DNA of 64,000 nucleotides, from assembly GCA_002269645.1 (NCBI GenBank), contig NIVC01003397.1:1-64000 (forward strand), given 5' to 3'. Origin of the DNA: Macrostomum lignano (lineage: Eukaryota). A program made the translations under genes and the position numbers. The notes below the pieces were generated by a model. That model ran no database searches. It saw only the letters and a list, made by a program, of their open reading frames with translations, and was not told the origin of the DNA. Shown one piece after another: positions 12,853 to 35,796 of this stretch (its first letter is position 1; each line of letters begins with the position of its first letter).

Positions 12853-13032
12853 GTCAAGTTTCGAGCTCCGGTTGTTGTCAGGCAGCGGTAGTTAGGATGT
12901 GGTAGTGCGAATATCTGTCTCCCTCAAAAATATCTTGGGGAATTGGATAGTGTCCATTTGGAGAATTCCTTTTTTAACCATCTCTAACAATAAAAATGAA
13001 AACTCTGTCTGCGTGTGTCTGTCTGTGGACAA

Positions 13033-13079
13033 GGGTTAGGGTTAGGGTTAGGGTTAGGGTTAGGGTTAGGGTTAGGGTT
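13033..13079 (+). repeat. Interstitial telomere-type (TTAGGG)7 array
   Basis: Direct reading. Confidence 0.95.
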
Positions 13080-13269
13080 TCTTCCATACTTTCTCTCTCC
13101 TGATCCTTTTCCACCCTTTCCCTCAGCCACTCCCGACCCCATCTTTTTCTCCTCTGCGCTCCCATTCGCTCACTGTACCCCTCGCGCGCTCCCATTGGCA
13201 GTAACCTCCTCTCAGTTTTTATATTTATTAAATATACCTGATCCAACTTAGGACTCTTTACTAACTAAT

Positions 13270-13308
13270 TGCTCCTGAAGAAGGTTTTAAACCGAAACGC
13301 GTCGAGCA
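13270..13308 (+). ncRNA. Minimal type I hammerhead ribozyme (Penelope pLTR-type)
   Basis: TGCTC-CTGAAGA-A-GGTT-TTA-AACC-GAAAC-GC-GTC-GAGCA: stem I TGCTC/GAGCA, intact core, palindromic stem III ACGCGT, GUC cleavage triplet. Confidence 0.8.
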
Positions 13309-13396
13309 CCAAATCCCTTTTTAGCTACTGTCTTTTTAGCCTTCCTTATTTTAAGTGCTCAGCGGCCGACTGGTCTGACGGATCAGTAATCCTTGT

Positions 13397-13443
13397 CCTA
13401 ACCCTAACCCTAACCCTAACCCTAACCCTAACCCTAACCCTAA
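13397..13443 (-). repeat. Interstitial (CCCTAA)7 array facing the 13033 array
   Basis: Direct reading. Confidence 0.95.
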
Positions 13444-14895: not shown

Positions 14896-16138
14896 TTATT
14901 TTTTGTTGAACCGTGAAAGCAGAAGCTCTCTCGCCCGTTTGTCAATATACTTCTTTTCCATCATTTTGTCCAGGATGTTGACAAATTCTTTTCTATTCTC
15001 ATCTTTCATTCCGGTCTTTGCTGCGCCAAGGAGAACAGCTAACCGCTTGTAGAATTCAGGCATGCCTTTTCCAGTTGAAGGTGGTTGGTCTTGAGGTTAT
15101 GGAGTTGGTTGGGCTTGAGGTTGTGGATTTGGTTGGGCTTGTGGCTGCTGGGGAGGTGATGCAAAAGACTGCTCACTTTCAGAGGTGGAACTGTCATGTG
15201 ACGCTTGTCTTTGTTGAGGTGTGAAAACTCTTTGGTTGATTCTATTTATTCGATCTGGAGAGTGTTGTTCTAAGCGTTGCCAGTCTACTGGGTTTTGTTT
15301 CTTATACTCAGCTACTTTGAAGGGGTCTAACTGCTCGAGTTGACTGAGTACTTGTTCTTCTGTGAAATGTTGCGGTTGTTGTGGCGGTTGCTGTTGTTGT
15401 TGTTCTAGATATTTTATGACTTCCGCCTGATCTGGAAAACCAAACCATTGTTCAAAGTATTTGTACTTTTTTGAATCTAGTCAGGTTGACACCGCTATCG
15501 TACATGCCTTTCAGAACTTCTGGGACCGTTAGTATTTCTATATCTCTAGCAAGAGCAAAAGTGACTAGATCTCTATAGTTCCTTAGCTGCTTGTCCGAGA
15601 TTCTCTCTTGGTTTTTGGTCATAAAATTCAGTAAGGTTTCTGTAAAAGGAATGCTCTTAGTTTCTGAGCCTTTGACAACAGAAATATGTTCCTTATTTAT
15701 GTTGATATAATATTCCACTGGTTCATTATAAATATTTTTTCTCCACATACCTATTCCAAATACATATTTTCCATCATGTTCTACACGCTCTACTGGTCCA
15801 AAAATGTTATCTGTCACTTTTAGCTGTTGTGGTTGTGCCTGTGATTGTTGTGATTGTGGTTGTTGCTGTGATTCTTGTGGTTGCGGCTGTATCTGTGGTG
15901 CTTCTGGAATTTTGCCCAAAGCCTTTTGCACCTGGGTTTCCTGTATGTCGTCGATAGTTTCTTTGACCTGATTAATATTTTTCTTCGCTTCTGTGTATCC
16001 AGGTTTGTGAAATTCGGTGGCTGCTTGGACGAATCCATTGTAAGATTGTTGTTCTTTGTTGATTAGTCCGGTAACTCTCTTTTCTGCCTGCGCCAGCTTT
16101 TCTAGTTCAGAGATATGATATGAACTTTTCCGCTTCAT
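14896..16138 (-). pseudogene. Conserved Polinton structural-cluster protein (Q/P-rich), one frameshift and one nonsense codon
   Basis: The 228-aa ORF continues after an A-run frameshift (~15470) through EQWFGFPDQ... to TGKGMPEFYKRLAVLLGAAKTGMKDENRKEFVNILDKM, a Polinton-type RL..L.G C-terminus. Confidence 0.6.
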
Positions 16139-16168
16139 TTTTAAATATTTTTTTTCTTTTGTTGAAAA

Positions 16169-17455
16169 ATGAACGATCTCCTGACACCGGTTTTCGATAA
16201 GATTAACAAGCCTATTTTAAGTGATGACAGCACTATTAAAGCGACTCAGGTAAGAGTTCCCAGTCAGGAAAATCAGAATGAAACTAATTTTGGTCCTGGT
16301 CAAACACTGACATTCACATACAATGGATGTTCGTCTCTGGTTAGTGTGCACAGTCTTAAGAGCGGCTTCAATATGACATTTCAATTCAAGACAAAAGGTG
16401 GAGATGATGCTGCTCATGCTAACGTTGACAAGCATGACGCGGATGTGGCTCTGATCAGTAACTTTTGGGCGTACATGTTCAAGGAGTTTAGTGTATCGAA
16501 TGGGAGCACAGAGTTGGAGCGAATCGCCAACTTTGGAATTGTCTATGACGCTCATCGTTTGATGGAGAATCCGGATTTTATTCAGTTGGGAAGTGGTGCA
16601 GGTTTTATTGCAGATCAAAAAGAAGGAGACACCAATGACAGTGGCTATAAAAAGAGGAAGAAGAGATACAACTATGCTTTGCAAGGTGCTAATGATGCTG
16701 CTAAGAACCCGCTGTATCGGTCTGTTGATGTATTTGTACCACTAAGATTCATGAGTGGATTCTGTAATACATTTAATCGACTGACTAGTAACTTTAGCTA
16801 CACCTTTAAGATGACTAGAGATGATCGCAGTAGAGTGTTGTGGACTGGGGCGGACCACACTAGGATGGATGTGAAGCTAACCGGAATCGAGTTGTATTTG
16901 GAAGTCATTGAGCCAAAGACTGCACTAAAAGCAGACTATCTTAAGGCAATAGAGAAGGACATTGATGTTGCATACACGGCCTACATGTGTCGAGATGAGC
17001 GAAACGAAACTAGAACAAACATCTGCATCAAAGAGGGATCATGCAGCAATCCAAGGTATATCATTATTAACATGAGAAACCTAAATAGCATTATACGCTA
17101 CATGCATGGAGACTTTCGGTCCATTCAGCATGAAATCAGTGATAATCTTTACCCTGCACTGCCAAAAAATGGTGATTTCAGTCAGAACAAGATTAGCAAA
17201 TTTTACAGCGAGTTGGTCGACTTGGCCGTGAAAGAGAACAATGGAAGTGCTATCACTGCTCTTCAATATGGAACTCTATATCCGATGTTTGGCGCTGATG
17301 TGTCTGCCAGACAAATTCCTACTGATAACAGCCCTGTGAATATCGTGACTAACATTGAAAGGACTGCCGCAACAGCCGTGGACCTGTACATTGTCTATGC
17401 ATTTGAGAGGAAGGTGAAGCTTAACATGATCAACAATTCATCCAGTAAAGTTTGA
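16169..17455 (+). CDS. Polinton major capsid protein (double jelly-roll)
   Basis: Intact 428 aa, DDS-type N-terminus, LYPMFGADVS...DLYIVYAFERKVKL C-terminus; lies beside the penton and ATPase genes. Confidence 0.8.
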   Translation: MNDLLTPVFDKINKPILSDDSTIKATQVRVPSQENQNETNFGPGQTLTFTYNGCSSLVSVHSLKSGFNMTFQFKTKGGDDAAHANVDKHDADVALISNFWAYMFKEFSVSNGSTELERIANFGIVYDAHRLMENPDFIQLGSGAGFIADQKEGDTNDSGYKKRKKRYNYALQGANDAAKNPLYRSVDVFVPLRFMSGFCNTFNRLTSNFSYTFKMTRDDRSRVLWTGADHTRMDVKLTGIELYLEVIEPKTALKADYLKAIEKDIDVAYTAYMCRDERNETRTNICIKEGSCSNPRYIIINMRNLNSIIRYMHGDFRSIQHEISDNLYPALPKNGDFSQNKISKFYSELVDLAVKENNGSAITALQYGTLYPMFGADVSARQIPTDNSPVNIVTNIERTAATAVDLYIVYAFERKVKLNMINNSSSKV

Positions 17456-17474
17456 ATAATTTTTTTTCAAAAAA

Positions 17475-18338
17475 ATGGAGGCCATAGCCGAAAGACTAAA
17501 CAACATTGTTTCACACTCTAAGGAGAGCATTCCTATTACAATAACCGGGCGAATTAATGACTCAAACGGGATATTTGTTGAAAAATTAGAGCAGGCGATT
17601 CGCCTGGATCCAGGTGCTAATTACCATGTCTATCTTAACGACTTCACTGGTTAGTCAAACGTTCCCAATGTGATGGCAGCAAATAATAAGTTTCATTACA
17701 AATGGAAACGAGCAGCAGCAGATCCTGTGGCATTCCCTGTGAGCACGCAAAGTGTGGATACCTACAATTACTTTCTAGAAAACGTCTTTACTAAAAGAGG
17801 CCATTTTGAGACACCTGATGCGAGTAAGCCAGAGAAGAAACTATTCCCTGTCAAACTAACCTATGATCTCACTGTAATGAGAGTGGTCATGCAAGTTCAC
17901 AAAGATGCGGAGGTTGAGTTTAAAGATGACACTTGGTATAGGGAATTGGGATTCGAGAAGAAAGTTTATAAGGCTGAATCCACAGCGTGGACCGCCCTTC
18001 AAGCGTCGGGGGCCGTTAGCATGGCCCGGGAAAATGTAAGCGGTTTTTTCTTAGCACCCAATATTGCAGATATTGTAAAGGGTTTAAATATTCTAATCAG
18101 AAGTAATCTTAGTCTTGATTGGGTATTTAAGGGAAAGCGAACGAATATTTTGTACAACATCTCCAACTCTGTAGCTGGAGGACAGATGGTGGTAGAGAAA
18201 CCAAATTCGGTGAAAAGAGTTGTATTGAGTAATAAGGAGATTCACGAGATTGTGCTACAGTTTGAGACTGAAGATGGGTTGGGTGTTGATTTCAACGCTG
18301 AAGAGTTTGTACTGACGTTGATCATTGAGAGAATGTGA
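17475..18338 (+). pseudogene. Polinton minor capsid (penton) protein with one TGG>TAG nonsense at 17652
   Basis: IRLDPGANYHVYLNDFTG*SNVPNVMAANNKFHY and NILYNI...VEKP...IHEIVLQFETEDGLGVDFNAEEFVLTL; same frame across the stop. Confidence 0.8.
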
Positions 18339-18976: not shown

Positions 18977-20285
18977 TAAGTGGCGTTGCTTTTTTGCTTA
19001 AGTTTTTATTAAGTAAAGACGTTCTCTGACTGTTTTTACCCTGGTTGCCTCTCTGGTAGCTTGTCTAAGGGTTGTGCGCAATCCGATTGGCTATGCCAAT
19101 TTCTAAGGGTCCGCCCCGGAGGGGCTGTGCCCGTTCTAAAAATAAACCTATTTTTTCTCTCTATATCCAATTTCGGCCCTCGGCCCTGGTTTAGGGGGGG
19201 TGGTGCCCGGAGTGAGTTGTCTCTCTGGACTGCAGTGTGGCTAGGTCGGGACTTGAGCCCCCCGGTCGTACCCGCCCTGCAGGAAAGCATGACCAATTCA
19301 CAAAGGTGTACGGTAGACCCAGTAGACTGCCAGCCCTGAGGCTGAGCACCCGGGCTGCAGGTCGGCAAGCTGCCTGCTTTAGGGCTATGGTGCTCCTCCT
19401 TCTGCCAATCTTTTTTTCTGGGCTGGCATCCCAGCGCTGTTTTATCCCTTAGCTTTGTGCCTTTGTGGCTTTTATTATTTTATTCTTTTATCTGGCCACT
19501 AGAAGCCTTCCAATCTTCGGAGTTATGAGCTCTGCCCTTGCCCGGTCCATCTTGCCCTGTCCTCGGGTCCATCTCCTGGCTCCTGCTGCAAGGTCCCTGC
19601 TTGCGTGTCTCTGGCTCTCATCCTGACAGTGGATTGGTGTCCTGGGAAGGATGTTCGTCCCGAACGGGGACAACCGGCTGAGTCCGGAGTCCTCTTGCCC
19701 TGGGTGCCTCTCTCCCGACCCCTTGGCCTGGCCTCCAATATTGAGCTGGATAGGCGATGCCCTTGGGTTGGTAGCAATAGAGGTGTGTATGTCCGCCTAG
19801 AGTCTCCCCCTCGGATACAAGCCTTCCAGACTCACTCCAAAATAGAGCTGGGTAGCGAAAAGCCTTGAGGCTCGAGACCTACAGTTTATGCGGTTGCTGT
19901 ATAGGATCGCTCTTGGTAAATAGCTGCCCAGACTCTCTCCAATAGTTAGCCCTTTTCCAAGACTTCTGGGTTTCCCCGCTCTTGGACGGCTTTTTCAGTA
20001 ATTCCAATTCTGTTATTTCGCGCACTCCCAAGGACTTGTCTGCTGGGGGTGGCCTGGGTGGACTCGGTCCTAGCACCGTCCCTGATTCCACTGTTGGTTT
20101 GGCGGTGTCTTGTACCGTAGGTTTGGGTCTAACTCGCCCCCCCCGCGCTTTGAGCCGGGTCCAATCCAATTGCATCCATGGGGTATCTCGGGCCCTGGAC
20201 AGATAATGCCTTGGCCCCTGGAAGTGCCCCTCGCGGCAGAGCCCACCCCAGGGCTGATCCGCGGGTCCCCTAGGACCCTTTCGTT
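18977..20285 (-). mobile_element. Degenerate retroelement-like fragment (target of the Gypsy insertion; continues 29241-29275)
   Basis: FQGP...WTRLK resembles an integrase C-terminal GPF/Y tail. Direct repeat AAGTGGCGTTGCTTTTT at 18977 and 29252. Confidence 0.35.
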
Positions 20286-21148
20286 TGATGTGTTCCTTAT
20301 TACCCGACTTTCGATAATCAAGGAACAATCACTTCTAGCTCAACAGCTAGGCAACCCAGTAAGTCAAACGAAGGTATTCAATTACCTTTAATCCGGATTT
20401 GAATTTCTTGAGTAGTTCTCGCTAGGAACTCGTCAGTAGATCTCGTAGATCAGGCGCCTTGATTCTTCAGTTGCTCTGGTCCTGGTTCCTCTTGTACTTC
20501 CGATAAGTTCTTCCGGCCGGTATCTTCCGTCAGGACCAATCAGAGGCCTCGTAGCAACAATGGGTACCCTGCGCCAAAACTGCGGTCTAAATTAAGCCTC
20601 CTTCTTCTAGCAGTGCCTCTATGCACTCTAGGTATAGCTCCGGAAACCACTGATAGTCCTCTAAGATCTATCAGGGGCAGTCCTTCTGGAGACTGCAACC
20701 AATGGAGTCTAAACAGACTCAAGAGTCTCAACAGACTCAAATGGACTCAAGTCTCAATAGACTTGAGCGAGACGTCTCTAACACAACAGGCGCAAATAAG
20801 GAAGGCTTACCGCAACAACTCGACCGAGTCTCGATTGACTTGGTGATCAGGAAGTCCTCCTAAGGCTTCCTCTTCGGAGCGCTCCTCTTCCGTGGGGAGA
20901 ATGGCTCCGGTACCGCTTCAGATCGCTTGTATTTATAGGCAACTTTTTGCTCCAAAATAGTATCATGACAATTCACGTGTTGCGCTAAAAGGGGAAAATG
21001 GCTCATGGCGTATTATTCTGGTAACATCTTTTCTGGTAGCGTGATTCATTCAAAGCTTAGGCGCACATGCGTATACTTACTTACTTATAGTAGTATTATA
21101 CGATTATCTTCTTTTTTTCTGTTTTTGCGGGAGGCAGAACACTCTACA
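20286..21148 (-). repeat. 3' LTR
   Basis: TGTAGAG...CACATCA on the minus strand, TATAAA at ~20935, preceded by the PPT. Confidence 0.95.
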
Positions 21149-21151
21149 AAA

Positions 21152-21163
21152 TCTCCCTTTTTT
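21152..21163 (-). promoter_or_regulatory. Polypurine tract
   Basis: AAAAAAGGGAGA just before the 3' LTR. Confidence 0.8.
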
Positions 21164-21275: not shown

Positions 21276-21710
21276 TCAAAGCTCTAAAAACTTTTCAGTA
21301 CATATTGCGGTCAAAACTCGAATATCGCGTAGACATCGAGTGGCATCAGGTTTGATACGACACCACTTTCGAAACGTGCAGTCTCGCGGCATACTATTAC
21401 TTAAGGGGCATCCTATAATGCCCCTACTAGCGGTTTGCTTCAAACCGTGCATGCAAATAAAATGTTGGTGGTTACAATATTGAAACGTGCGCCAAGAATA
21501 ACAATAGGCGCATTGTCGCAAACTATCTCTACAGAGGGGACAATTCTGCCATGGCTGAATATAATGTGAATCGCTTAAACATTGTCCGCAAACGTTTTGT
21601 CCGTTGATGCAAATAATCGGTGGCTTGACAGCCAAGTCATCAGTTAAACATATCGGGCAGTCATATAGCTGCTGAGGTTGGGGTGCCTGTTTTGACAGTG
21701 CGTTGCCCAT
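21276..21710 (-). CDS. Accessory N-myristoylated SINA/Siah-like RING protein
   Basis: MGNALS (MGxxxS); CPICL...PPIICINGQNVCGQC...CPLCR; a second Cys/His cluster; located between IN and the PPT. Confidence 0.7.
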   Translation of the reverse strand: MGNALSKQAPQPQQLYDCPICLTDDLAVKPPIICINGQNVCGQCLSDSHYIQPWQNCPLCRDSLRQCAYCYSWRTFQYCNHQHFICMHGLKQTASRGIIGCPLSNSMPRDCTFRKWCRIKPDATRCLRDIRVLTAICTEKFLEL

Positions 21711-21830: not shown

Positions 21831-23732
21831 CTAGCGTGGTCGTAGGTTGTAGCCATGTGGCTGGCTCACATCTGTCGTTTGAGTCTCCTCGTGCTTTGTC
21901 GCGACGTGACGGTTCGTTGAACGCGTGCGATCGGCGTTGTCCAATGTCGGTAGAAACGTCGCGGTGTCAGTGTTGATCTTCTTTAGTCGATGAATGTGCA
22001 CGTAGAATTGATGCTGATGTGGATCTTGCACATTAGCCAGGCGTGCCGTTGTTGGTGACGTTAGTTGGACCACTCGATAGGGTCCTTTGTACTTCTGCGC
22101 GTGTTTATGCGTCTGCTGTGGCGGGTAGTGCAGGTAAACGATGTCGCCGGCCGTCAGGGTTGTCGATCTCGCGTCGTTGCCGGTGGTCAGAGCCACCTGG
22201 TTGTCAATATTGTGCTTGGCGATCTTCCATGCGAGGTGTAGCTGCGTGACAAATTTTTGAATGGAAGTCGGTACTTCCACGTACTGCGATGGTAGCAATT
22301 GCTGTGCGAGCAGATTCGGCGGTTGGAAGTCTCGTCCAAACATTAGGAAGAATGGCGTATTGTCCGTTGATCGATGAATAGCGCTGTTGTAGGCCATTGT
22401 TACAGATTGCAGGTAGATGATCCAGTCTTCCGGCTGTTGGTGCGCGAAATGTGTAATCATCTCGTGCAGGTTGCGGTGAAACCGTTCAACCATGTTTGCC
22501 TTCGGATTGTAGGTCGATGTGTAGATCTGCGTAATGTTGAGAATCCTTACGACTTGCTGAAACAGTTGCGATGTAAACTGCGATCCGTTGTCCGATGTGA
22601 GGTTCTTTGGCGTGCCGTACTTGCAAATGATTTCGTTGAAGAAACTCATTGCCACTGTCTGAGCTGTGATGTCCGGTATCGGTATGGCGATAGCAAACTT
22701 CGAGAAGATATCCAAGGCGGTTAGAATGTAGGTGTAGGCAATGCCCTGGAGACAGCTCGGTGGCAGTGGTCCGGTGATGTCGATGCTTAGACAGTCCATT
22801 GTAGTCGACTTCGGAATGGACTGTAGCTGCGGTTTCTGTCGTCGTCCTGTCTTTGATGCAGCACATGAATGGCAGTTGTTGCAATACTGCTTGATGTCGC
22901 CGTACATAGTTGGCCAAAAGTAGTATTGTTCCACTCTCGCAATGGTCTTTGCGGCCGACAGGTGTCCAGCGAGTGGGTTGTCGTGCAGTTCGTTGAGAAT
23001 TGCTTGCCGAAACGAATATGGTACGTAGATCTTAGGTTTATTGTCGCTCATCCAGTAGAGCCGTGACTTATTGATTGTTAGGTGTTGTCGTTGCTTGCGT
23101 AGGAATTTTCGTTCCATGGGACTGAGTTTGATGTTCTTGTCGTCGTCTTTAACCGCTTGGTAGAAGTTGTCGCGCTCGGTTTCATCTACCAACTCTTTGA
23201 TGTTAGGGATTGGGTGAATGGAGTTGACTTCATAGGCTCTTGACAGGGCGTCCGCGGCCTTGTTAGTAATTCCTGGTTTGTAGACGAGCTTGTAGTTGTA
23301 GTCCTGGATCTTGAGTGTCATCCTGATGAGTCGGTTGTTTGTTTGTCCTTTTGTAGTTACGACGTAGGTCAATGGTGCATGATCCGTGCGTACTATCGTT
23401 TGTATTGGAGAACCATAGATGTAGTAATGAAACTGTCGCAGGGCGAACAAGACTCCTAGTAGCTCTCGTTCCGTAGCTGACCACTTTGTCTCATTTGGTT
23501 TGAGTGCTCGACTGACGTAGGCAATATGTCGTTCCTTCTTGTCCTTGGTCTCCTGTAGTAGGACTGCTCCGAGTCCCGTTCCTGAGGCGTCTGTCTCGAT
23601 GATGAAGGGCTTGTCGAAGTCCGGATGCTGTAGCAGTGCGTCTGATGTCAGCTGTCGTTTGATTTCGTCGAAACTTTCCTGTTGTCTCTGTGTCCAGTTG
23701 TCTTGCTTCCATTTGTCGAACTTGAGTAGGTC
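21831..23732 (-). CDS. RNase H and integrase portion of pol (same frame as 23733-27677, after one TAA)
   Basis: IETDASGTGLGAVL, WSATERELL, VRTDHAPL, LHDNPLAGH...C..C zinc finger, LSIDITGP, LTSDNGSQF, NMVERFH, KYKGPY. Confidence 0.92.
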   Translation of the reverse strand, partial: DLLKFDKWKQDNWTQRQQESFDEIKRQLTSDALLQHPDFDKPFIIETDASGTGLGAVLLQETKDKKERHIAYVSRALKPNETKWSATERELLGVLFALRQFHYYIYGSPIQTIVRTDHAPLTYVVTTKGQTNNRLIRMTLKIQDYNYKLVYKPGITNKAADALSRAYEVNSIHPIPNIKELVDETERDNFYQAVKDDDKNIKLSPMERKFLRKQRQHLTINKSRLYWMSDNKPKIYVPYSFRQAILNELHDNPLAGHLSAAKTIARVEQYYFWPTMYGDIKQYCNNCHSCAASKTGRRQKPQLQSIPKSTTMDCLSIDITGPLPPSCLQGIAYTYILTALDIFSKFAIAIPIPDITAQTVAMSFFNEIICKYGTPKNLTSDNGSQFTSQLFQQVVRILNITQIYTSTYNPKANMVERFHRNLHEMITHFAHQQPEDWIIYLQSVTMAYNSAIHRSTDNTPFFLMFGRDFQPPNLLAQQLLPSQYVEVPTSIQKFVTQLHLAWKIAKHNIDNQVALTTGNDARSTTLTAGDIVYLHYPPQQTHKHAQKYKGPYRVVQLTSPTTARLANVQDPHQHQFYVHIHRLKKINTDTATFLPTLDNADRTRSTNRHVATKHEETQTTDVSQPHGYNLRPR

Positions 23733-26700
23733 TTACAGTGGCTTTGCTGTCTTTGTGAAGTTAGGTAAGAACTTCCTGAAGTATTGCGCAAGTCCAAGGA
23801 ATGATTGGACCTTCGTTATACTGGTTGGCGTAGGAAACTTCTTCACCTTTTCCACATTGTCCGGGTCCGGTGAGATTCCTTTGGCTGTCACTTGGTGTCC
23901 TAGGTAACGCACGTTGTCTCGGAAGAATTTGCATTTCGTCGGTTGCAGCTTAAGACCTTGGCGTTGAATGAGCGCAAGGGCCTTCTCCGTAGCTTCGTAG
24001 AGTCGCTCGAAATCCTCTCCATAGGCCAAAATGTCGTCGACATAGTGCAGCAGGTTCGTGCATCCTGCAAGCATGTATGCTGTCAGTCTGCTCATCGTTG
24101 CTGGGCTGTTGCTAAGTCCCATCGGCGATCGGTTGTACTCGTAGACTTGTCCATTGTAGGTCTTGAAGGCTGTGTACTGGCGCGATTCCTGGCGAGTGAT
24201 GAACGCTTGCAAGAAGTCGTTGATGGTCCATCCAGGTGTTATCTCATCGAGTTGGATATCGGCGAATGGCGTGTACTTCGTTCTGTTGAACCGTATCTTC
24301 AGGTCGTCCATATCGTACGTTTCATCGACAATCACTTCTGGTTCTGTGATGTTTGCTGTCGTTCCTGTCGTTTTAATGACGTGTAGTGCATCGTCCAGTT
24401 GATAGTAGTTTGCTGCAGTGGTGCAAGGTCTTGGTATTGCGGTTCCAACGATGATGTTGTGTACCGTGTCCAAGAATCCTTGTATTCTTTTGCCTTCGTA
24501 GAATGCTTCAATTCTCGGTTTGTCGTAGCAAGTTGCTGAAGTGTTCGACGGTAAGATGTTGAAGTGCTGTATCGGCGTGCACTTGTATATCAGGAGATGT
24601 CCATATATCGGAATTGCCAGAACATCTCTCATTCCAGTGATCTTGCGAAATGTCATCGTAGGGTTGACATAGTAGTTTTGTCTTGCGTAGTTCAAGTTGA
24701 TTGCGTGCATCTTGCAAGTTAACTGAACCAGTGATCGGTGTAAGTGGCTTAGCTGGTTATGCAGGTTGTGATCCAGCGCCGTGATCTTTGCTGACAGTAG
24801 TCGGTTCGACACCAATCGTGGACGTTCTATGTCGCGTCGTTGCCTTTCTTGTTGTTGATACGTTCCGTTTATGATCGCCAGGAAGGTTAGTTTGTCGTCA
24901 TCCTTTACATAGACTGGTATTTCTTGCTCCGAGATGAATAGCGTCTTGTCCGTATCCTTGCATTTGAGTTCCTGTTCAACCGGCTTCTTTTGAAACGTCA
25001 AGGCCAAGTCTCCTGCCTTTGCCAAAAACGTATTCGACAGTAGTCCTCCTTCCACCGTGTGATACTTTTGAAGCTTGCAGTCAATTTCCGGCTCTACTTT
25101 CCATGCGAAGAAATATTGTCGTGACTTGTACGGTTCCTCATAGTGTGATTGTGCTCTGTGCTCAATCTGCCATCGATAGTCTTGATGATATGTTGGACTC
25201 AGTGGTAGACTGTGTAGTTCTTCCTTCCGTAGAATTGGTGTTGGACACCATCCCTCACTGTATCGACATTCGCTTAGTTGCAGCTGTAACGATTCCATTT
25301 TCTCGTACGGATTGTAGTAGAATGGAATATTTCTGATCAAGTAGCTGTTGCGTGCCATATATTCTTTCCATTTTCCGAAGAAGTGAATATATCGACCGTT
25401 GGCTGAATTCTTTGTTCTGAACAGCTGTGCGTTGCCGACCTTCTCATCTGGTTCCAGTTCACCATCTTTTGAAAATAGTGTTTGGTTCCATTGTAGGCAT
25501 TCCGCGTGTGACACATGTAGCTCATGTTGTTTAAATCGGATCCGGTTCCATTGTCCGCGCCAAACTTTTTCCACCAGGTGCTTGTCTCTGAAGCATACTA
25601 TTCCGTGTTGTCGATGCTTCTTGATGTTAGCCTTGTAGAGATCGAGTGTAATCTTCTTTGGTTTCGTCTGGTTTGTCTTGAAGTAGCTGCATTTGATGTC
25701 GGTTGGTATCTTGTAGATCATCGGTTGGATATGCGCATCCGTTGGACAGATCATTGGCTTTTCCGTTGCCGTTGCTTTGGCGACTACTGCTATCAGTAGT
25801 ATCACGATGATCCAGTATAGCCAGTTTTTCCACTTTTTGGACCTTGCCGTTGTCTTTGCTGGCATTGGCGGCGATCGCCATTCGTTATCTTCCATGTCCG
25901 CATCATATCCTTCCGGTTGTTTCATTGGTTGTTTCAGGCGGAAGGCTTCTGATTCGCTTTGCTTTTTGGTTATTTCAGTATCTTCGTCTGCGGCTTCTTC
26001 CGATGTTTCCGTTGTTTCACTCCATTGCGTTTGGTATCTTTTCTCTGTCTTGTAGTCGACCGTTTGAATATAGGCTTCACCATTTCGTTTGTATCGTATC
26101 TCGTAGCATTCGTCGCTGTCGGAACTCGGCTTTTCTTTCATCTGTTCTTTTTCCATTTCTTCATCTTTCCATTGTATTTCGTAGCCTTGATCGCTGTCGG
26201 AACTTAGATTTTCCGCTCTCAGTTCTTCCTGCATTCCTCTTTCGGCTTGGTAGTCGTTCGTGTCATCACGCACCTCGCAGTCGTGGTCGTTGCCGTAACT
26301 TCTACATTCTTCTTCTTCTTTCATTTCTTTGTCTTTCATGCTCGTTTTGTCGTCATCCACTGTTGTCGATTCATAGTTGTTTTCTTCGCCGGTTTCCATC
26401 TTTTCTTCGTTACCGATGTCGCTCTCCGCCTCCTCCCTTTTCTTGTGATTTACTTTCTTCCTGTTTTCTCTGCTGTCTCCGGTGGTCTCTTTTAATTTGA
26501 TCATTTCGGTTTCATTCGCCTCTTCTGTGTTGTCAGTGTTGTCCTCGTGCGTCGTCTTCTTTTCGATCAAGCTGATGTCAACTTCCGGGACTGTGAAGTC
26601 CATTTCCAAGTCGTCAATTGTGAACACTTGCTGTTCTTGCTGCTCATTTTCTGGTGTGTACGTGATGGCATTCGCGTATCGTGGCATTGCTTGCGTCGGC

Positions 26701-27677
26701 TGTCTTTGTGTGTACCTGACGTTGCGTGGCCTGTAGCCATTATTTCTGAAGCGACCGTCGTTTCCGAAGCGGCCATCATTTCCGGAGCGGTCATTATTTC
26801 CGAAGCGTCTATCATTTCCGAAGCGTCTTATGCCTTGTTGTTGGCGATTTTGATATTGCTGCCATGGTTTCTGCGGCTTTTGATTGTTGAATATCTGTCG
26901 CGGCTTGTCGTACCTTGTTGACCAATGAGGACAATTAATCTGATAATGTCCTTCTTGTCCGCAGTAGTAACATCTGGCTGAGGCTTGTTCATTTCGTCTT
27001 TTTTGTTCGGCGATAGCAGCTGTCTGGTGCTGCATTAATTTGTTTAATTGCTGCGTCAGTTTCTGCACTTCATTGTTGCCTGTCGTCATTAATGGGGCAC
27101 TGGCTTCCCATTGCATTCCGCATCGCAAAAGGTCTTCTTCGGTTTCGATATTTTCACGCAAAAGTCTATCCCGAAGTGACGGCTGTGCGTTGTTTATTAC
27201 GTGCAGGATGAGGTTTTGTTCGCGATCCATCAATCGTTGTCTTTCTCTGGCGGCCAATTCTGCCGCTCCCAGTGGCGGTTGGTCCGCAGCTTGCAGCGGT
27301 GGCTGATGCAGTGCCTTAATTATCTGGCGGATATCGTCCACAAAGGCGAGGAAGGATTCTGTTGCTTGCATCCTTCTGTTATGTAACTTGTGCAGCAGCA
27401 CTGATCTGTTTGTGCCGCAACAGTTGAAATGCGCGCGCAGTTGAATGATTAGTGCTGGATAATTTTGCTGTGTTGCTGCATCCAGCTTGCCGTAAATTTC
27501 TCGCGCAGTACCTTGGAGAAGAGGTGGCAGCAGCTGTGCCTTCTCTGGATTTTGTAGGTTGTATTCCCTACATACCAGGTCAAAATGGTCAACAAATGTG
27601 TTAAAATCTTTCTCCATCGAGAAGGTACCGACCGTTTCTTTGATGTCTCTGTGTACCGTTGGATTGCGCCGCGCCAT
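23733..27677 (-). CDS. Gag - acidic linker - signal peptide - Env-like ectodomain - N-truncated RT polyprotein
   Basis: Gag with CYYCGQEGHYQINC; WLYWIIVILLIAVVAKATA signal; Cys-rich ectodomain with 5 N-glycosylation sequons and RQRR furin site; fused to ESRQYTAF...PMGLSNSP...YVDD. No protease and no TM anchor. Confidence 0.88.
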   Translation of the reverse strand: MARRNPTVHRDIKETVGTFSMEKDFNTFVDHFDLVCREYNLQNPEKAQLLPPLLQGTAREIYGKLDAATQQNYPALIIQLRAHFNCCGTNRSVLLHKLHNRRMQATESFLAFVDDIRQIIKALHQPPLQAADQPPLGAAELAARERQRLMDREQNLILHVINNAQPSLRDRLLRENIETEEDLLRCGMQWEASAPLMTTGNNEVQKLTQQLNKLMQHQTAAIAEQKRRNEQASARCYYCGQEGHYQINCPHWSTRYDKPRQIFNNQKPQKPWQQYQNRQQQGIRRFGNDRRFGNNDRSGNDGRFGNDGRFRNNGYRPRNVRYTQRQPTQAMPRYANAITYTPENEQQEQQVFTIDDLEMDFTVPEVDISLIEKKTTHEDNTDNTEEANETEMIKLKETTGDSRENRKKVNHKKREEAESDIGNEEKMETGEENNYESTTVDDDKTSMKDKEMKEEEECRSYGNDHDCEVRDDTNDYQAERGMQEELRAENLSSDSDQGYEIQWKDEEMEKEQMKEKPSSDSDECYEIRYKRNGEAYIQTVDYKTEKRYQTQWSETTETSEEAADEDTEITKKQSESEAFRLKQPMKQPEGYDADMEDNEWRSPPMPAKTTARSKKWKNWLYWIIVILLIAVVAKATATEKPMICPTDAHIQPMIYKIPTDIKCSYFKTNQTKPKKITLDLYKANIKKHRQHGIVCFRDKHLVEKVWRGQWNRIRFKQHELHVSHAECLQWNQTLFSKDGELEPDEKVGNAQLFRTKNSANGRYIHFFGKWKEYMARNSYLIRNIPFYYNPYEKMESLQLQLSECRYSEGWCPTPILRKEELHSLPLSPTYHQDYRWQIEHRAQSHYEEPYKSRQYFFAWKVEPEIDCKLQKYHTVEGGLLSNTFLAKAGDLALTFQKKPVEQELKCKDTDKTLFISEQEIPVYVKDDDKLTFLAIINGTYQQQERQRRDIERPRLVSNRLLSAKITALDHNLHNQLSHLHRSLVQLTCKMHAINLNYARQNYYVNPTMTFRKITGMRDVLAIPIYGHLLIYKCTPIQHFNILPSNTSATCYDKPRIEAFYEGKRIQGFLDTVHNIIVGTAIPRPCTTAANYYQLDDALHVIKTTGTTANITEPEVIVDETYDMDDLKIRFNRTKYTPFADIQLDEITPGWTINDFLQAFITRQESRQYTAFKTYNGQVYEYNRSPMGLSNSPATMSRLTAYMLAGCTNLLHYVDDILAYGEDFERLYEATEKALALIQRQGLKLQPTKCKFFRDNVRYLGHQVTAKGISPDPDNVEKVKKFPTPTSITKVQSFLGLAQYFRKFLPNFTKTAKPL

Positions 27678-28357: not shown

Positions 28358-28375
28358 GAGAGGGCGAGATCACCA
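28358..28375 (-). promoter_or_regulatory. Primer-binding site
   Basis: TGGTGATCTCGCCC.. begins 2 nt after the 5' LTR; the tRNA was not identified. Confidence 0.7.
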
Positions 28376-28377
28376 AT

Positions 28378-29240
28378 TGATGTGTTCCTTATTACCCGAC
28401 TTTCGATAATCAAGGAACAATCACTTCTAGCTCAACAGCTAGGCAACCCAGTAAGTCAAACGAAGGTATTCAATTACCTTTAATCCGGATTTGAATTTCT
28501 TGAGTAGTTCTCGCTAGGAACTCGTCAGTAGATCTCGTAGATCAGGCGCCTTGATTCTTTAGTTGCTCTGGTCCTGGTTCCTCTTGTACTTCCGATAAGT
28601 TCTTCCGGCCGGTATCTTCCGTCAGGACCAATCAGAGGCCTCGTAGCAACAATGGGTACCCTGCGCCAAAACTGCGGTCTAAATTAAGCCTCCTTCTTCT
28701 AGCAGTGCCTCTATGCACTCTAGGTATAGCTCCGGAAACCACTGATAGTCCTCTAAGATCTATCAGGGGCAGTCCTTCTGGAGACTGCAACCAATGGAGT
28801 CTAAACAGACTCAAGAGTCTCAACAGACTCAAATGGACTCAAGTCTCAATAGACTTGAGCGAGACGTCTCTAACACAACAGGCGCAAATAAGGAAGGCTT
28901 ACCGCAACAACTCGACCGAGTCTCGATTGACTTGGTGATCAGGAAGTCCTCCTAAGGCTTCCTCTTCGGAGCGCTCCTCTTCCGTGGGGAGAATGGCTCC
29001 GGTACCGCTTCAGATCGCTTGTATTTATAGGCAACTTTTTGCTCCAAAATAGTATCATGACAATTCACGTGTTGCGCTAAAAGGGGAAAATGGCTCATGG
29101 CGTATTATTCTGGTAACATCTTTTCTGGTAGCGTGATTCATTCAAAGCTTAGGCGCACATGCGTATACTTACTTACTTATAGTAGTATTATACGATTATC
29201 TTCTTTTTTTCTGTTTTTGCAGGAGGCAGAACACTCTACA
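28378..29240 (-). repeat. 5' LTR
   Basis: Near-identical to 20286-21148. Confidence 0.95.
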
Positions 29241-31066
29241 CGTTTAACAACAAGTGGCGTTGCTTTTTTATTAAGTTAGTGTTACCAGCTATATGAAACT
29301 TCACCTTCACGATGATATCAAACGTCATCTTTCTCCGGGTTGAATATTATTCGAAATATTTTCAGCTGCCATAAAACATACCAATAGATGTTTTTGGTAT
29401 AAAATGACTTAAAGAAATACCAAATCATGGCTGATTTAGTTACTAATACAAACTTTGCTAAATTGGCTGGCTGATAAGATAGTTGTTCATTTTAATTCTA
29501 CTACTTTCTCTCTCCCCATTTCCTATCAGTACTGCTGTTTGTATTGGAAATATACAGTAATAATAGCCTGGCCTACCACAAGTATTGCATTGATTACATT
29601 ACAACTACTAGAGCTAAACATAATTCCTATCAAAATAATAATTGTCTGGAAATCAAATTCCTACATACATACAGTTTGCAAAGAACTGCTTGATTTTCGA
29701 ATCAGTCTTCCTCTCAGCTTAATAATATATAATCATTGGACATTGGATATCATATCCTAGGTCTATCATCATATCATATCCATAGACCATATCATAGGAT
29801 ATTATATCATATTTTTATTTGGAAGGTACAGCTGTTCTAGCATTTCTATCATACAAAAAAGCTTGGCATACTTGATTTGAAGTTAATTTTTTTTGTTTCT
29901 TAGTTTGACTAGTTAGCCATTTAATGACATTATATCTATTATACATGCTAAGTTCATGTTAGGCCTAGCATTTAAAATATACTTTAGTTTCTTAGTTAGC
30001 TTATTGAAATCTTTAGTAGGCCCTAATTTCTCATTTTAGCACTCTTAGAGCTAGAATTTCTTTAACAAACTTAGGCTTAGCTATATTCTATATTAAAGCA
30101 TATATTTTATTTTTTTTGCCCATCAAGTAGCCTATAGCCTATTACATAATCATATTCAAACATATTTTAGACATTATTGTGACATTGCTAAGGCACTATT
30201 GTTTAATTTGTGGTTGAGCAGGTTTCTTAGTTGAATAGAAAGTCTAAACAAAAGTAAAAATATTTATAGGATTATATATAGAAATCCTAAGAGTAAGACT
30301 AAAGCATTCTGTTTGATATAGTTTTGTATATTGCAATTTTAGGATGTATAAAATATAACTGTATAAATGCATAAGTCCAAATCTTTTTATAACCAAATAT
30401 ACTTTTTTCTGCCTGTTTCAGATGGCCACCTGGGTGAAGAGGACAGGAGAGGTTGCTACTATATATCATCAATGATACTAATTCCAACTCCTAGATGAGG
30501 AGAGAATTCATTCCTATGATGACATCATCCCTGCTTATTGGAACAGGTTGTCATGAAGGGATATCAGCTAGTCAATTTGAGGAAGGAGTTGAGGAAGAAG
30601 ATAACAATTCACCATTTGATTCAGTCTCCAATTCAAAGACTGAGGACTATCAAGAATCTGATGTAGCTCTTCTGAGTGAAAGACTGGGCAATAATGCAAT
30701 ATGCAGCAATATGCAATCTACTGTCTATTTATTCTATAGTTCTGTTGTTTGCTGCTTTCATCCTTATATTTAATTGTTCTAATAACACTGTTTTCAACAT
30801 TCTCTTCTGTTTTGTCAGTATTGTCGTTTTTACTGTCGCTATTATAAATTTTTCAACTTTTAAAATTTAATTTATTACCATCCTTTTCATAAATTTTCAT
30901 ATGCAAACATCAACTTAATTTGTGTTAAAATAACAATTTATGAAGAAAAGTAACAATAACTTCCAAATCTAATGTCTACAATATGTATACAAGAGAAGAT
31001 GAATATAAGGCTTTGTCCGCATGTATTCTTGTTTAATTTTTTCTGGTAAAAATTTACTCTATTAGC

Positions 31067-32693: not shown

Positions 32694-35600
32694 ATGCCGC
32701 TACCTCCTCGTGGTGAGAGTGGAGAGCCGCGCTTAACTGCTGCGGCGGCCAAATGCGGCAGGACCAAGCGAGGGCAGCGGAGCGCGCGTCGGCGAGTTGA
32801 ACGCCGTCGCGAGCGAAACTGGCGAGGTCGGCAACGTGGCGCCGCCCGCCGAGCTGCTGCTGCGCTGGCCCAATTGGATCTTCCGGGTGGCGCCGGGGAC
32901 CATGAGGCTCACCAGCATCGAGCCCCAGCCGTACCAGAGGGCACGCTTCGGGTCGGGACGCTGAACTGCCGCACTCTCAAGGCCACATGGCGGAGAGGGC
33001 TGCTGGCGAGGCTAGCGCTCGACCTCAGCTGTGATGTCATCGCACTACAGGAGGTGTCTATCAGAGCCGACCCCGGACTTCACTGTGAGGACCTGGCGCC
33101 GGTTGGACACTCTGGTACACCTCAGCGGATGAGCGAGGCCGTGGAGGAGTTGGAGCGCTGATCGGACCGAGGCTGCAGCAGAGCTGTCGCTGCATCTCCC
33201 TGTCTTCTCGGCTGCTTCGGGTCGACGTCCGGCTTCGCGGCCGGAACACCCGCCTGTTCTGCGCGTATGCGCCGCCTGCTACCCGCTCCGATGAGGCTCA
33301 GGCCTTCTTCGAGCAACTCTCGGTGCGGGTGGAGGAGATGGCGCAACGTGACACAGTGGTCATTTTCGGAGACCTGAACGCAGTTCTGCGTAGGTCCGAG
33401 CGATCGCTGTTTGTGACAGCGCGCGAGAACGGCAACACCGGAGCGCTAGAGGACTTTCTGGAGAGACAGGACATGGTGTCGGCCAACACCAGATTCCGCA
33501 AGTCACCGGGCAGGCTCGCGACCTTCGTGGGCTGCAAGCGGAGGCGGCGGAACGCGCGCGGCCGGAACGCTACGCGGAGGCTGGCACAGCTCGACCACGT
33601 GCTTGTGCGCTTTCGTGAGCGCCGCCGCGTCACCAACTGCCACAACTGGCTCACTCCCGACCATCGGCTGCTCATCTGCGACCTTCGGCTTCGGGACCCG
33701 CTCTACCGTCCGCCAAAGCGGCCACCGCGGCGCTACTACCGCGCGCTCAGGGACGCCGAGACGCGACGTCGCTTGCCGGTGCCTTTGTCACTGCGCTGGG
33801 CGACAAGCGTGGAGGAGCCGAGTACGCGGAGGTGAGCGCTGCAGTTCGAGCCGCTGCGGAGCAAGCAGTCCCGCTGATGCGACCGGCCCAGCGCGGGCAG
33901 CCGGTCTGGCAGGACGACCCCGCGATCGACGAAGCGAGGGAAGATCTGGAGAGGCTCCGACTGAGTGGGCGGCCAACTCGCGAGGCGGAGGAGGCTCTGG
34001 CGGCTGTCTACCTGCAGCGGCAGCAGTCCGCTGTCGATGACGCCATCCAAGCCGTCTCTGCCGCAGGGCCCGATGCCAGAGGGCGCGTGGCCTGGTCCGC
34101 CATCAACACTCTGACGGGGCGAAAGCGGCGCATCGCGCTCAACCTGGCAGGCGACACTCCGGATGAGCGCAGGAACGAGCTGCGCGAGTTCTTCGCCGCC
34201 ATTGTCAACGCGCCGCCCCCTCCGCTTCCAGAAAATCTGAGGCTGCCGCCGGAGACGCCGTTGCCGGCGGAGGAGAGCTTCAATGTTGCCCCAGTCAGCA
34301 CAGCCGACGTTGTGAAGTTCGCTCGGCAGTCGCCGGGCGGCAAAGCGCTTGGTCCGGACGAGGTGCCCTCCGAGGCGCTGCGGATCCACTGCGTGGCCAC
34401 TGAGGTCGCCAGAGTGATGAACCGCGTTCTTTTCGGTGAGGTGGCGCCAAACGAATGGACCACGGCGCACATCGTCGCCATTCCAAAGAAGCCGGGCACC
34501 ACCAAGCTCGAGGAGCATCGAGGCATCTGCCTACAGTCCTGCGCCGCGAAGCTGTTCAACCGCATGCTGCTATCGCGGTTACAGCCTGTGCTGGACCCGT
34601 ACCTGCGACCTGAGCAGAACGGATTCCGGCCCCATCGCGGCACAGTGACGCAGATCCTGGCTCTTCGACGAGTCATCGAGGAGGCGCGCATCCGCCAGTT
34701 GACCCTGATCCTGATCTTCGTCGATTTCAGGAAGGCTTTCGACTCGGTCGTGAGGGACGCGCTCCCAGAGGTGCTCCGTGCGTACAACGTGCCAGAGCTG
34801 CTGATTTCTGCTGTCATGGCGCTGTACCACGGCACGACGGCTGCTGTCTCAACACCGGACGGCCTATCGGATTTCTTCGAGACATCCTCCGGGGTGCTCC
34901 GGGGAGATACGCTAGCGCCGTTCCTATTTATTCTGGTGCTTGACTGGGTGCTACGGACTGCTCTGCCTTCCTACGACGACGGCTTCCTGCTGCGGCGACG
35001 CGTGGGTCGACGCCAACCGGAGAGACGGCTCAGCGTGCTTGGCTACGCCGATGACCTCGCCCTGCTGTCCTCGACCGTCGAGGGCGCCCAACGACAGCTG
35101 GATAGGCTGGTTGCCGTTGCGGCGAGCGTCGGCCTGGTGGTCAACACGCAGAAGACCGTCGTGCTATGCGTGCCGGACGACACCGAGGCTGCAATCTTCT
35201 GCCGAGGCGCTGACGGACAGGCGAGTGAGCTTCCAAGATGTCAGCAGTTCGTCTACCTCGGCGGTCTGGTTCCCGACGTTCGCGAGGATCTGCGGCGTCG
35301 CCGAGGACTTGCCTGGGCTGCCTTTCGTTCTATAAGGTCAGTCCTGCAGTCCGAGGCCCTACCGGACCGCCAGAGGGCGGCGCTGTTCCAGGCGGTGATC
35401 GAGACCGTCCTGTTATACAACGCCGAGACCTGGACGCTGACAGACTCGCTCGAGGCTCAAGTCGACGCGGCGCACGCTGGCCTGCTGCGCGCCGCCTTCA
35501 AGATCGGCAACGAGCGAGTCACCAACACGGCGCTCTATCATCGCGCCGGCCTGGCCCGTCCTAGCGATCTGCTGCGCCGTCGGCGACTCCAGCTGGCAGG

Positions 35601-35796
35601 CCACGTCATCCGCGCCGAGGCCTACTGTCCGGAGCCGGTGCAGGAGGTGCTGCTACTTACGTTGCAGGCACCCTACCGGCGGGGACAGGCGAAGACTCGG
35701 CGCTACGTCGACTGTCTGCTGGCTGACGCCGGTGCCCCGGACTCTGCCGGCGGTGCGGCTTTTGTTCGCGCCCAAGCTTTGAAGCGCGCCATCTGA
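32694..35796 (+). CDS. APE endonuclease-reverse transcriptase ORF (two 1-nt deletions at ~33095 and ~33773)
   Basis: VGTLNCRTL, IALQEV, IFGDLNA, LDHVLV, DHRLL; KALGPD, QNGFR, FVDFRKAFDSV, GVLRGDTLAP, YADD. Confidence 0.88.
32695..32760 (+). ncRNA. HDV-like self-cleaving ribozyme core
   Basis: P2 TGCCGC/GCGGCA, P3 ACC/GGT with L3 TCCTCGT, P1 3' strand GAGAGT then GG (P1.1), P4 GCCGC/GCGGC, J4/2 CAAAT. The P1 5' strand was not found. Confidence 0.65.

Follow-up and report, generated by a model that had tools for sequence, protein, structure and literature searches.

A recent, internally deleted flatworm retroelement from a family that encodes Gag, a predicted gB-like fusogen and Pol in one frame

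The 64,000-nucleotide stretch analysed here (the window: positions 1 to 64,000 of the forward strand of contig NIVC01003397.1, Macrostomum lignano, assembly GCA_002269645.1) carries on its minus strand a Ty3/gypsy-type element of 8.96 kb, including both long terminal repeats (LTRs). Our analysis indicates that this copy was inserted recently and has lost an internal part, and that it belongs to a family in which intact elements have Gag, a predicted glycoprotein B (gB)-like fusogen and Pol in one frame, likely made as a single membrane-threaded polyprotein that would bud as an enveloped particle; we put the probability of this reading at about 0.7. The gene order is known and this family has very probably been catalogued; what follows is a worked anatomy of one family, whose single-frame topology and conserved tail motifs allow specific tests of how gB-type elements are transmitted.

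The coding part of the window copy is a minus-strand frame that runs from an ATG at 27677 to a stop at 21831 and is interrupted, just as an earlier note on this DNA had it, by a single TAA (Table 1). When the genome was searched at the DNA level for env, 40 of 93 candidates were scored and proved 86-100% identical, and all ten relatives fetched contain an extra 1,644-1,648 nt at about 24190. This extra stretch encodes in frame a second hydrophobic segment (TM2), the predicted Env anchor, a tail of about 80 residues, an LDSG protease (PR), a 120-residue region and the start of the reverse transcriptase (RT), as read from the long frames of four copies and from a Pfam scan of a fifth. All of these have been deleted from the window copy: because some 1.65 kb is missing at about 24190, it has no protease and only a partial RT. 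At most it could make Gag and an ectodomain that lacks its anchor and runs on into a piece of RT; it is therefore non-autonomous, with the full polyprotein beyond its capacity.

Intact relatives have the one-frame order Gag, linker, first hydrophobic segment (TM1), ectodomain, TM2, tail, PR, RT, RNase H (RH) and integrase (IN). The earlier note had postulated a parent element with a capsid-signal-glycoprotein-enzyme polyprotein, and this is supported: Gag, signal, glycoprotein, transmembrane segment, protease, RT, RH and IN do stand in one frame in intact relatives. Of 135 env matches recovered by a protein search, 16 lie in a frame of 2,450 codons or more; the tail lies 880-1,050 nt downstream in each of the 59 close ones (at least 91% identity over the whole query, window left out). 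Moreover, nine families in this genome share the TM1-ectodomain-TM2-tail-PR series, although the most distant are only 23-29% identical in env and about 40% in RT, and TM2, tail and PR stand in one chain in 13 proteins outside these families among 57 library relatives. The families were grouped by an RT tree, which served for this alone; it is built from 16 rows, lacks named references and includes one long branch. No relative fetched has env behind IN, the arrangement that the earlier note had named as speaking against its proposal. Env-before-pol is the layout of the family and not a rearrangement. The chance that the window copy, which does have damage at its env/pol junction, acquired this order by rearrangement or shows it through an artefact of assembly is practically nil: the same order is seen in all 59 close copies and in nine families, has been published (in the passages of PMC13524379 drawn on below), and is carried by relatives in which that junction is intact, which refutes the artefact.

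The window copy shows the marks of a Ty3/gypsy LTR retrotransposon, namely paired TG...CA LTRs, a short target duplication, a primer-binding site (PBS) and a polypurine tract (PPT). Its LTRs are 99.8% identical; this near-identity, together with the 4-bp target duplication, indicates that the insertion is recent. Across 21 rows the ends could be read in eight, with a 4-bp duplication in seven and a 5-bp one in the eighth. The family as a whole has multiplied recently and has at least 60 close copies in this one genome.

Several variants were seen among the relatives. On each of several contigs (C1130, C2121, C87, C2447 and C669) more than one copy of the family is present, in a cluster or a tandem arrangement. 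A distant 8.3-kb member (C103, L046-L047) has a Gag-like region, env and protease, and is devoid of an RT motif and of tail motifs. In the library relatives P0008, P0036, P0024 and P0045 there is a NADAR domain before env or there are two protease-like stretches behind it; P0036 additionally has a nucleotidyltransferase before env.

As something new the layout does not stand: the earlier note had itself listed a prior record of it for this clade among the grounds for refutation, and such a record exists. The passages of Chary and Hayashi (eLife 2026, PMC13524379) drawn on here describe elements from Nematoda, Bryozoa and Platyhelminthes with a gB-type ENV in GAG-ENV-POL order, and state that the ectodomain may sit between two transmembrane domains. 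Their table includes Platyhelminthes_Rhabditophora_Mlig_errantivirus_2, with 16 copies, 863-864-nt LTRs and a size of 10.6 kb; our family, with copies of 10,578-10,619 nt, agrees with it in the 12-nt PBS, in LTR length and in size, the three features on which its identification with that entry rests. With the gB-type errantiviruses as described there it shares gene order, gB-type env, an ectodomain between two hydrophobic segments and multiple recent copies. It belongs to the operational GAG-ENV-POL gB-type group of that source, having env between gag and pol and a gB-type ectodomain flanked by signal/transmembrane segments, of which TM2 is missing from the window copy only. Under the inclusion rule of that study (intact GAG, ENV and POL frames) the window copy is shut out by its deletion and premature stop, while other copies of the family pass. 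The same passages of its text, figures aside, do not treat single-frame processing, tail motifs or RING open reading frames (ORFs). In the literature searched, which left subscription journals, figures and bioRxiv supplements outside its scope, the GAG-ENV-POL order was found only in this paper and its preprint; the passages used of the Atlas virus preprint are not about the env-before-pol order. For nematodes, non-canonical endogenous retroviruses with flipped ENV and POL are on record (Sacco et al. 2022, doi 10.1099/jgv.0.001739, as cited in the passages used of PMC13524379).

A partial relative is already in UniRef: A0A0M4HFM6 (P0001), which bears the name 'Retrovirus-related polyprotein' and the species label Macrostomum lignano, matches the window env segment with 95% identity over 29% of it, and its RT segment is identical to a copy in this genome. 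This 1,488-residue protein begins inside the ectodomain, and env is not annotated in it. The nematode elements are said to have a continuous gag-env-pro-pol frame, a nyamivirus-like glycoprotein and other accessory ORFs, and the nyamivirus-like fold match reported below for our family fits such a glycoprotein. We do not file the family in the nematode NERV clade, which is defined by a nematode host and by monophyly with NERV RT, because the one close relative that bears a species label comes from a flatworm. BEL/Pao elements with a gB-like env (Tas, Anakin) have a BEL/Pao-type Pol and env behind IN; BEL/Pao membership is ruled out here by the Ty3-type domains and by env preceding PR.

The ectodomain comprises 520 residues with six sequons and an NPTMTFR segment at 24665-24645; its 12 cysteines are each at least 98% conserved in the relatives aligned at the respective column (39-52 of 56 rows), and nine of ten relatives examined have the furin-type site. 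The earlier note's proposal of a gB-like class III fusogen gains support from both profile and fold. A profile built from 57 env sequences matches gammaherpesvirus gB (E 3e-16), and of 25 relatives scanned out of the 57, 14 match the Pfam models Monjiviricetes_fusion or Glycoprotein_B with E 0.001 or better, most of these matches falling below the curated cut-off. For the fold we used an alignment-based AlphaFold model of the monomer (pLDDT 82.9), which replaced a single-sequence run (pLDDT 30.5). Foldseek with this model placed herpesvirus gB at the top in PDB (E 3e-20) and a nyamivirus-like G protein at the top among viral models (BFVD; E 8e-23), with probability 1.0 to gB and mononegavirus G and TM-scores of 0.2-0.5. 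The model is characterized by a long central helix (320-366) and long hairpins, as in the gB/G-type multi-domain fold. Class III fusogens have bipartite hydrophobic fusion loops; in the model, two predicted hairpins bear aromatic residues at their tips (positions 68-72 and 128-132), which may be candidates for such loops. Two results count against the assignment: a Pfam scan of the window protein alone gave no fusogen match, and the whole-chain TM-score to gB is about 0.3 with an rmsd near 38 A; the likeness is therefore one of domains, not of overall shape. On profile and fold the ectodomain is predicted to be a class III (gB/nyamivirus-G-like) fusogen. Env is under purifying selection: dN/dS is 0.05 for the ectodomain, 0.03 for TM2 and 0.12 for the tail in one within-family pair of copies, the only pair given because dS is saturated between families. 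Gag shows zero amino-acid changes over 259 codons at a dS of 0.13 between two copies.

The segments in front of the ectodomain suggest how it would reach the membrane. Gag ends in a CCHC knuckle (26972-26931), followed by a linker in which 31% of the residues are Asp or Glu; KKWK (25838-25827) then precedes the hydrophobic segment of TM1 (25820-25767). These landmarks, like the sequons, the RQRR and the NPT..FR segment, are all where the earlier note had placed them. In all nine families there are three to five Lys or Arg within 15 residues before TM1 and at most one basic residue after it. By the positive-inside rule, basic residues ahead of TM1 would keep Gag in the cytosol and direct the ectodomain into the lumen of the endoplasmic reticulum (ER), and the small residues behind TM1 would suit signal peptidase.

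We thus propose the following route. Gag would be made in the cytosol, and TM1, with the basic residues in front of it, would serve as an internal signal that sends the ectodomain into the ER lumen. Signal peptidase would cut behind TM1, so that Gag would stay attached to the membrane with no myristoyl group, and furin may cleave the ectodomain; as Gag has no N-terminal glycine, the leftover TM1 anchor would replace myristoylation. TM2 would bring the chain back to the cytosol, so that PR-RT-RH-IN would hang on the Env tail and be packaged with Env. [quoted passage not shown] The predicted topology is like that of flaviviruses and hepaciviruses, whose polyprotein has the order capsid, signal, envelope and enzymes and whose fusogen is of class II; the likeness is one of topology and not of homology, the present element being reverse-transcribing and having a predicted class III fusogen.

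Against this scheme it has to be said that every processing step in it, signal-peptidase cleavage included, as well as infectivity, is inferred from sequence. Moreover, it implies a 1:1:1 ratio of Gag, Env and Pol, unlike that of retroviruses, and no route to an excess of Gag was found: this family lacks a slippery heptamer before TM1, and the nine families have none in common. Capsid assembly in retroviruses usually needs such an excess, which, along with the fast evolution of the linker, would favour the view that the long frame is genomic only, and that splicing or frameshifting, as used by other retroelements, supplies most of the Gag, or Env. We consider this decidedly unlikely, given the same lack of a slippery heptamer and a frame that stays open across both junctions even in families at 23-29% env identity. 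Four runs guessed as RNA (contigs only) cover env and pol, with GT..AG ends at none of six listed joints, and are too weak to speak to expression or splicing. Alternatively, the polyprotein may be real and yet form no free infectious particle, the glycoprotein anchoring assembly on ER or endosomal membranes or passing cores on by direct cell-cell fusion. The polyprotein must indeed enter the ER membrane, transport to the plasma membrane is not evidenced by sequence, and transmission outside Drosophila is called unknown in the part of the discussion of PMC13524379 drawn on here. Yet the full-length ectodomain with its near-invariant cysteines and widely kept furin-type site, and the late-domain-like motifs, which suggest membrane scission, make this alternative unlikely, and we retain budding as an enveloped particle as the preferred reading.

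In this family the tail contains, within about 20 residues, YPxI (10 of 10 copies), PTAP (9 of 10) and in most copies PPxY. For the comparison across families, 31 rows had TM2 and a PR motif, rows lacking one or the other being left out of the counts; removal of nine family duplicates left the nine families and 13 library proteins. P[TS]AP is found in the Env tail of seven of the nine families (0.28 expected from composition-preserving shuffles) and YPx[LI] in six (0.33 expected). None of the three RT lineages is without P[TS]AP; whether it comes before or after YPx[LI] varies between families, and outside the motifs the tails are only 26-34% identical. In the host genome there is a coding sequence for a TSG101-type UEV domain (E 7e-39). 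A complex prediction of the tail peptide with this UEV scored 0.27 against a mark of 0.34 and was used neither for nor against. In retroviruses such motifs are found in Gag: MLV Gag carries the late-domain trio PSAP, LYPAL and PPPY, and the late domain of RSV is LYPSL (both from the parts used of PMC8402826). Here the same motif types, likewise clustered, are found not in Gag but past the Env anchor, in the stretch from TM2 to the protease. P[TS]AP motifs in an Env tail were not found in the literature searched.

We tentatively propose, as a possibility short of even odds, that in this flatworm clade late domains have shifted from Gag to the fusogen tail, with glycoprotein-driven ESCRT budding of one ER-threaded polyprotein in which the signal anchor would hold the capsid and the Env tail would carry the polymerase, and with tandem-RING proteins as possible ubiquitin ligases. 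If true, this would be an assembly route not used by orthoretroviruses. A number of points weigh against it. Strict YPxL is present in one of nine families, the pattern having been widened to Ile; PPxY is not enriched in the tails (1 of 9 families, 0.53 expected). The motifs were first noticed in this very family, without which the counts are 6 of 8 for P[TS]AP and 5 of 8 for YPx[LI], and all of these counts ignore the kinship of the families. Tail motifs are absent from C103 and from P0003, a library model of this family, and in tails outside the genome's clade P[TS]AP occurs in 1 of 13 and YPx[LI] in 3 of 13. This rarity outside the clade also suits a second interpretation, in which the proline motifs would not be ESCRT adaptors but would serve as sites for the protease or arise incidentally in a spacer rich in proline. 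Aromatic-Pro bonds are typical retroviral protease sites, and a W-P pair stands before PR in eight of nine families, so that cleavage may also take place at Y-P. This second interpretation has against it the seven occurrences of P[TS]AP where shuffles predict 0.28, and the retention of P[TS]AP while the rest of the tail diverges; we regard it, too, as conceivable but short of probable.

Behind IN, the elements have one to three accessory ORFs with tandem RING-like clusters. Three related families of one RT lineage have two or three paralogous ORFs of this type (L049:774-2141, L033:765-2621, L031:797 onward), in the window's own family only in its longer members; the window's sub-family has a single shortened one, and none was seen in C247, C1884 and C1189. 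Among 93 candidates from the protein database none matched the RING ORF at E 0.001, so that it has no homologue there, and Atlas returned generic viral RING clusters. RING ORFs behind IN were likewise not found in the literature searched, and the passages used of a paper on extra ORFs in rotifers (PMC5408684) make no mention of RING. A ubiquitin-ligase role is a guess that draws on the fold family. Arenavirus Z is a myristoylated, matrix-type RING protein; a comparable role was set aside here, since an N-terminal MG occurs only in this family, the first RING ORF of C717 and that of C391 being without it.

Pol is of the Ty3 type, with the order PR-RT-RH-IN in an intact relative. The earlier note had RT, RH and IN following the ectodomain in the window copy; RH, IN and the C-terminal part of RT are indeed there, the last as the final 120 of the 205 positions of Pfam RVT_1, but the N-terminal part of RT and the protease are missing, a Pfam scan of the window copy finding no protease. 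The closest solved relative of the RNase H/integrase stretch is Ty3 Gag-Pol (E 4e-44). In L048 the stretch between protease and RT, about 120 codons long, is conserved (dN/dS 0.07) and has no Pfam match; we presume, as a guess, a degenerate dUTPase-like fold.

Table 1. Features of the window copy in 5' to 3' order of the element (window coordinates)
Feature	Position	Strand	Basis or remark
Target-site duplication, 4 bp	29241..29244; second copy 20282-20285	-	adjoins LTR ends
5' LTR, 863 nt, TGT...TCA	28378..29240	-	2 mismatches against 3' LTR
PBS, starts TGG, close inside 5' LTR	28364..28375	-	12-mer
Gag without N-terminal glycine (capsid-like region, CCHC knuckle)	26931..27677	-	translation, Pfam
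Post-nucleocapsid region and acidic, fast-evolving linker	25839..26930	-	translation; dN/dS 0.28-0.55
Basic cluster and TM1 (predicted internal signal anchor, small-residue cleavage region)	25767..25838	-	hydropathy 2.2-2.4
Predicted class III (gB-like) fusogen ectodomain, truncated near its C-terminal end; furin-type site RQRR at 24845-24834	24204..25763	-	profile, fold
Junction of copy-specific in-frame deletion, ~1.65 kb	24189..24193	-	comparison with relatives; junction 23-mer once in genome
C-terminal part of RT, with YVDD	23736..24188	-	Pfam RVT_1 86-205
Premature TAA	23733..23735	-	reading-frame translation
RNase H and integrase (HHCC, DDE, GPY)	21831..23732	-	Pfam; Ty3 Gag-Pol
Accessory 144-aa ORF, two RING-like Cys/His clusters, shortened, partly degenerate	21276..21710	-	translation
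PPT	21152..21163	-	before 3' LTR
3' LTR, 863 nt	20286..21148	-	pairs with 5' LTR

Other features lie elsewhere in the window. Next to the insertion, at 15452-18338, are ORFs of 429 and 227 codons on the plus strand and 254 on the minus strand; the 429-residue product weakly matches a double-jelly-roll model (E 2e-4, below the cut-off), which suggests Polinton/adintovirus-like capsid genes. At 13032-13443, TTAGGG/CCCTAA arrays stand head-to-head about 300 nt apart. Finally, positions 32694-35796 contain GC-rich ORFs resembling those of a non-LTR retrotransposon, with endonuclease and RT motifs recognized by eye and 36-nt repeats on the flanks.

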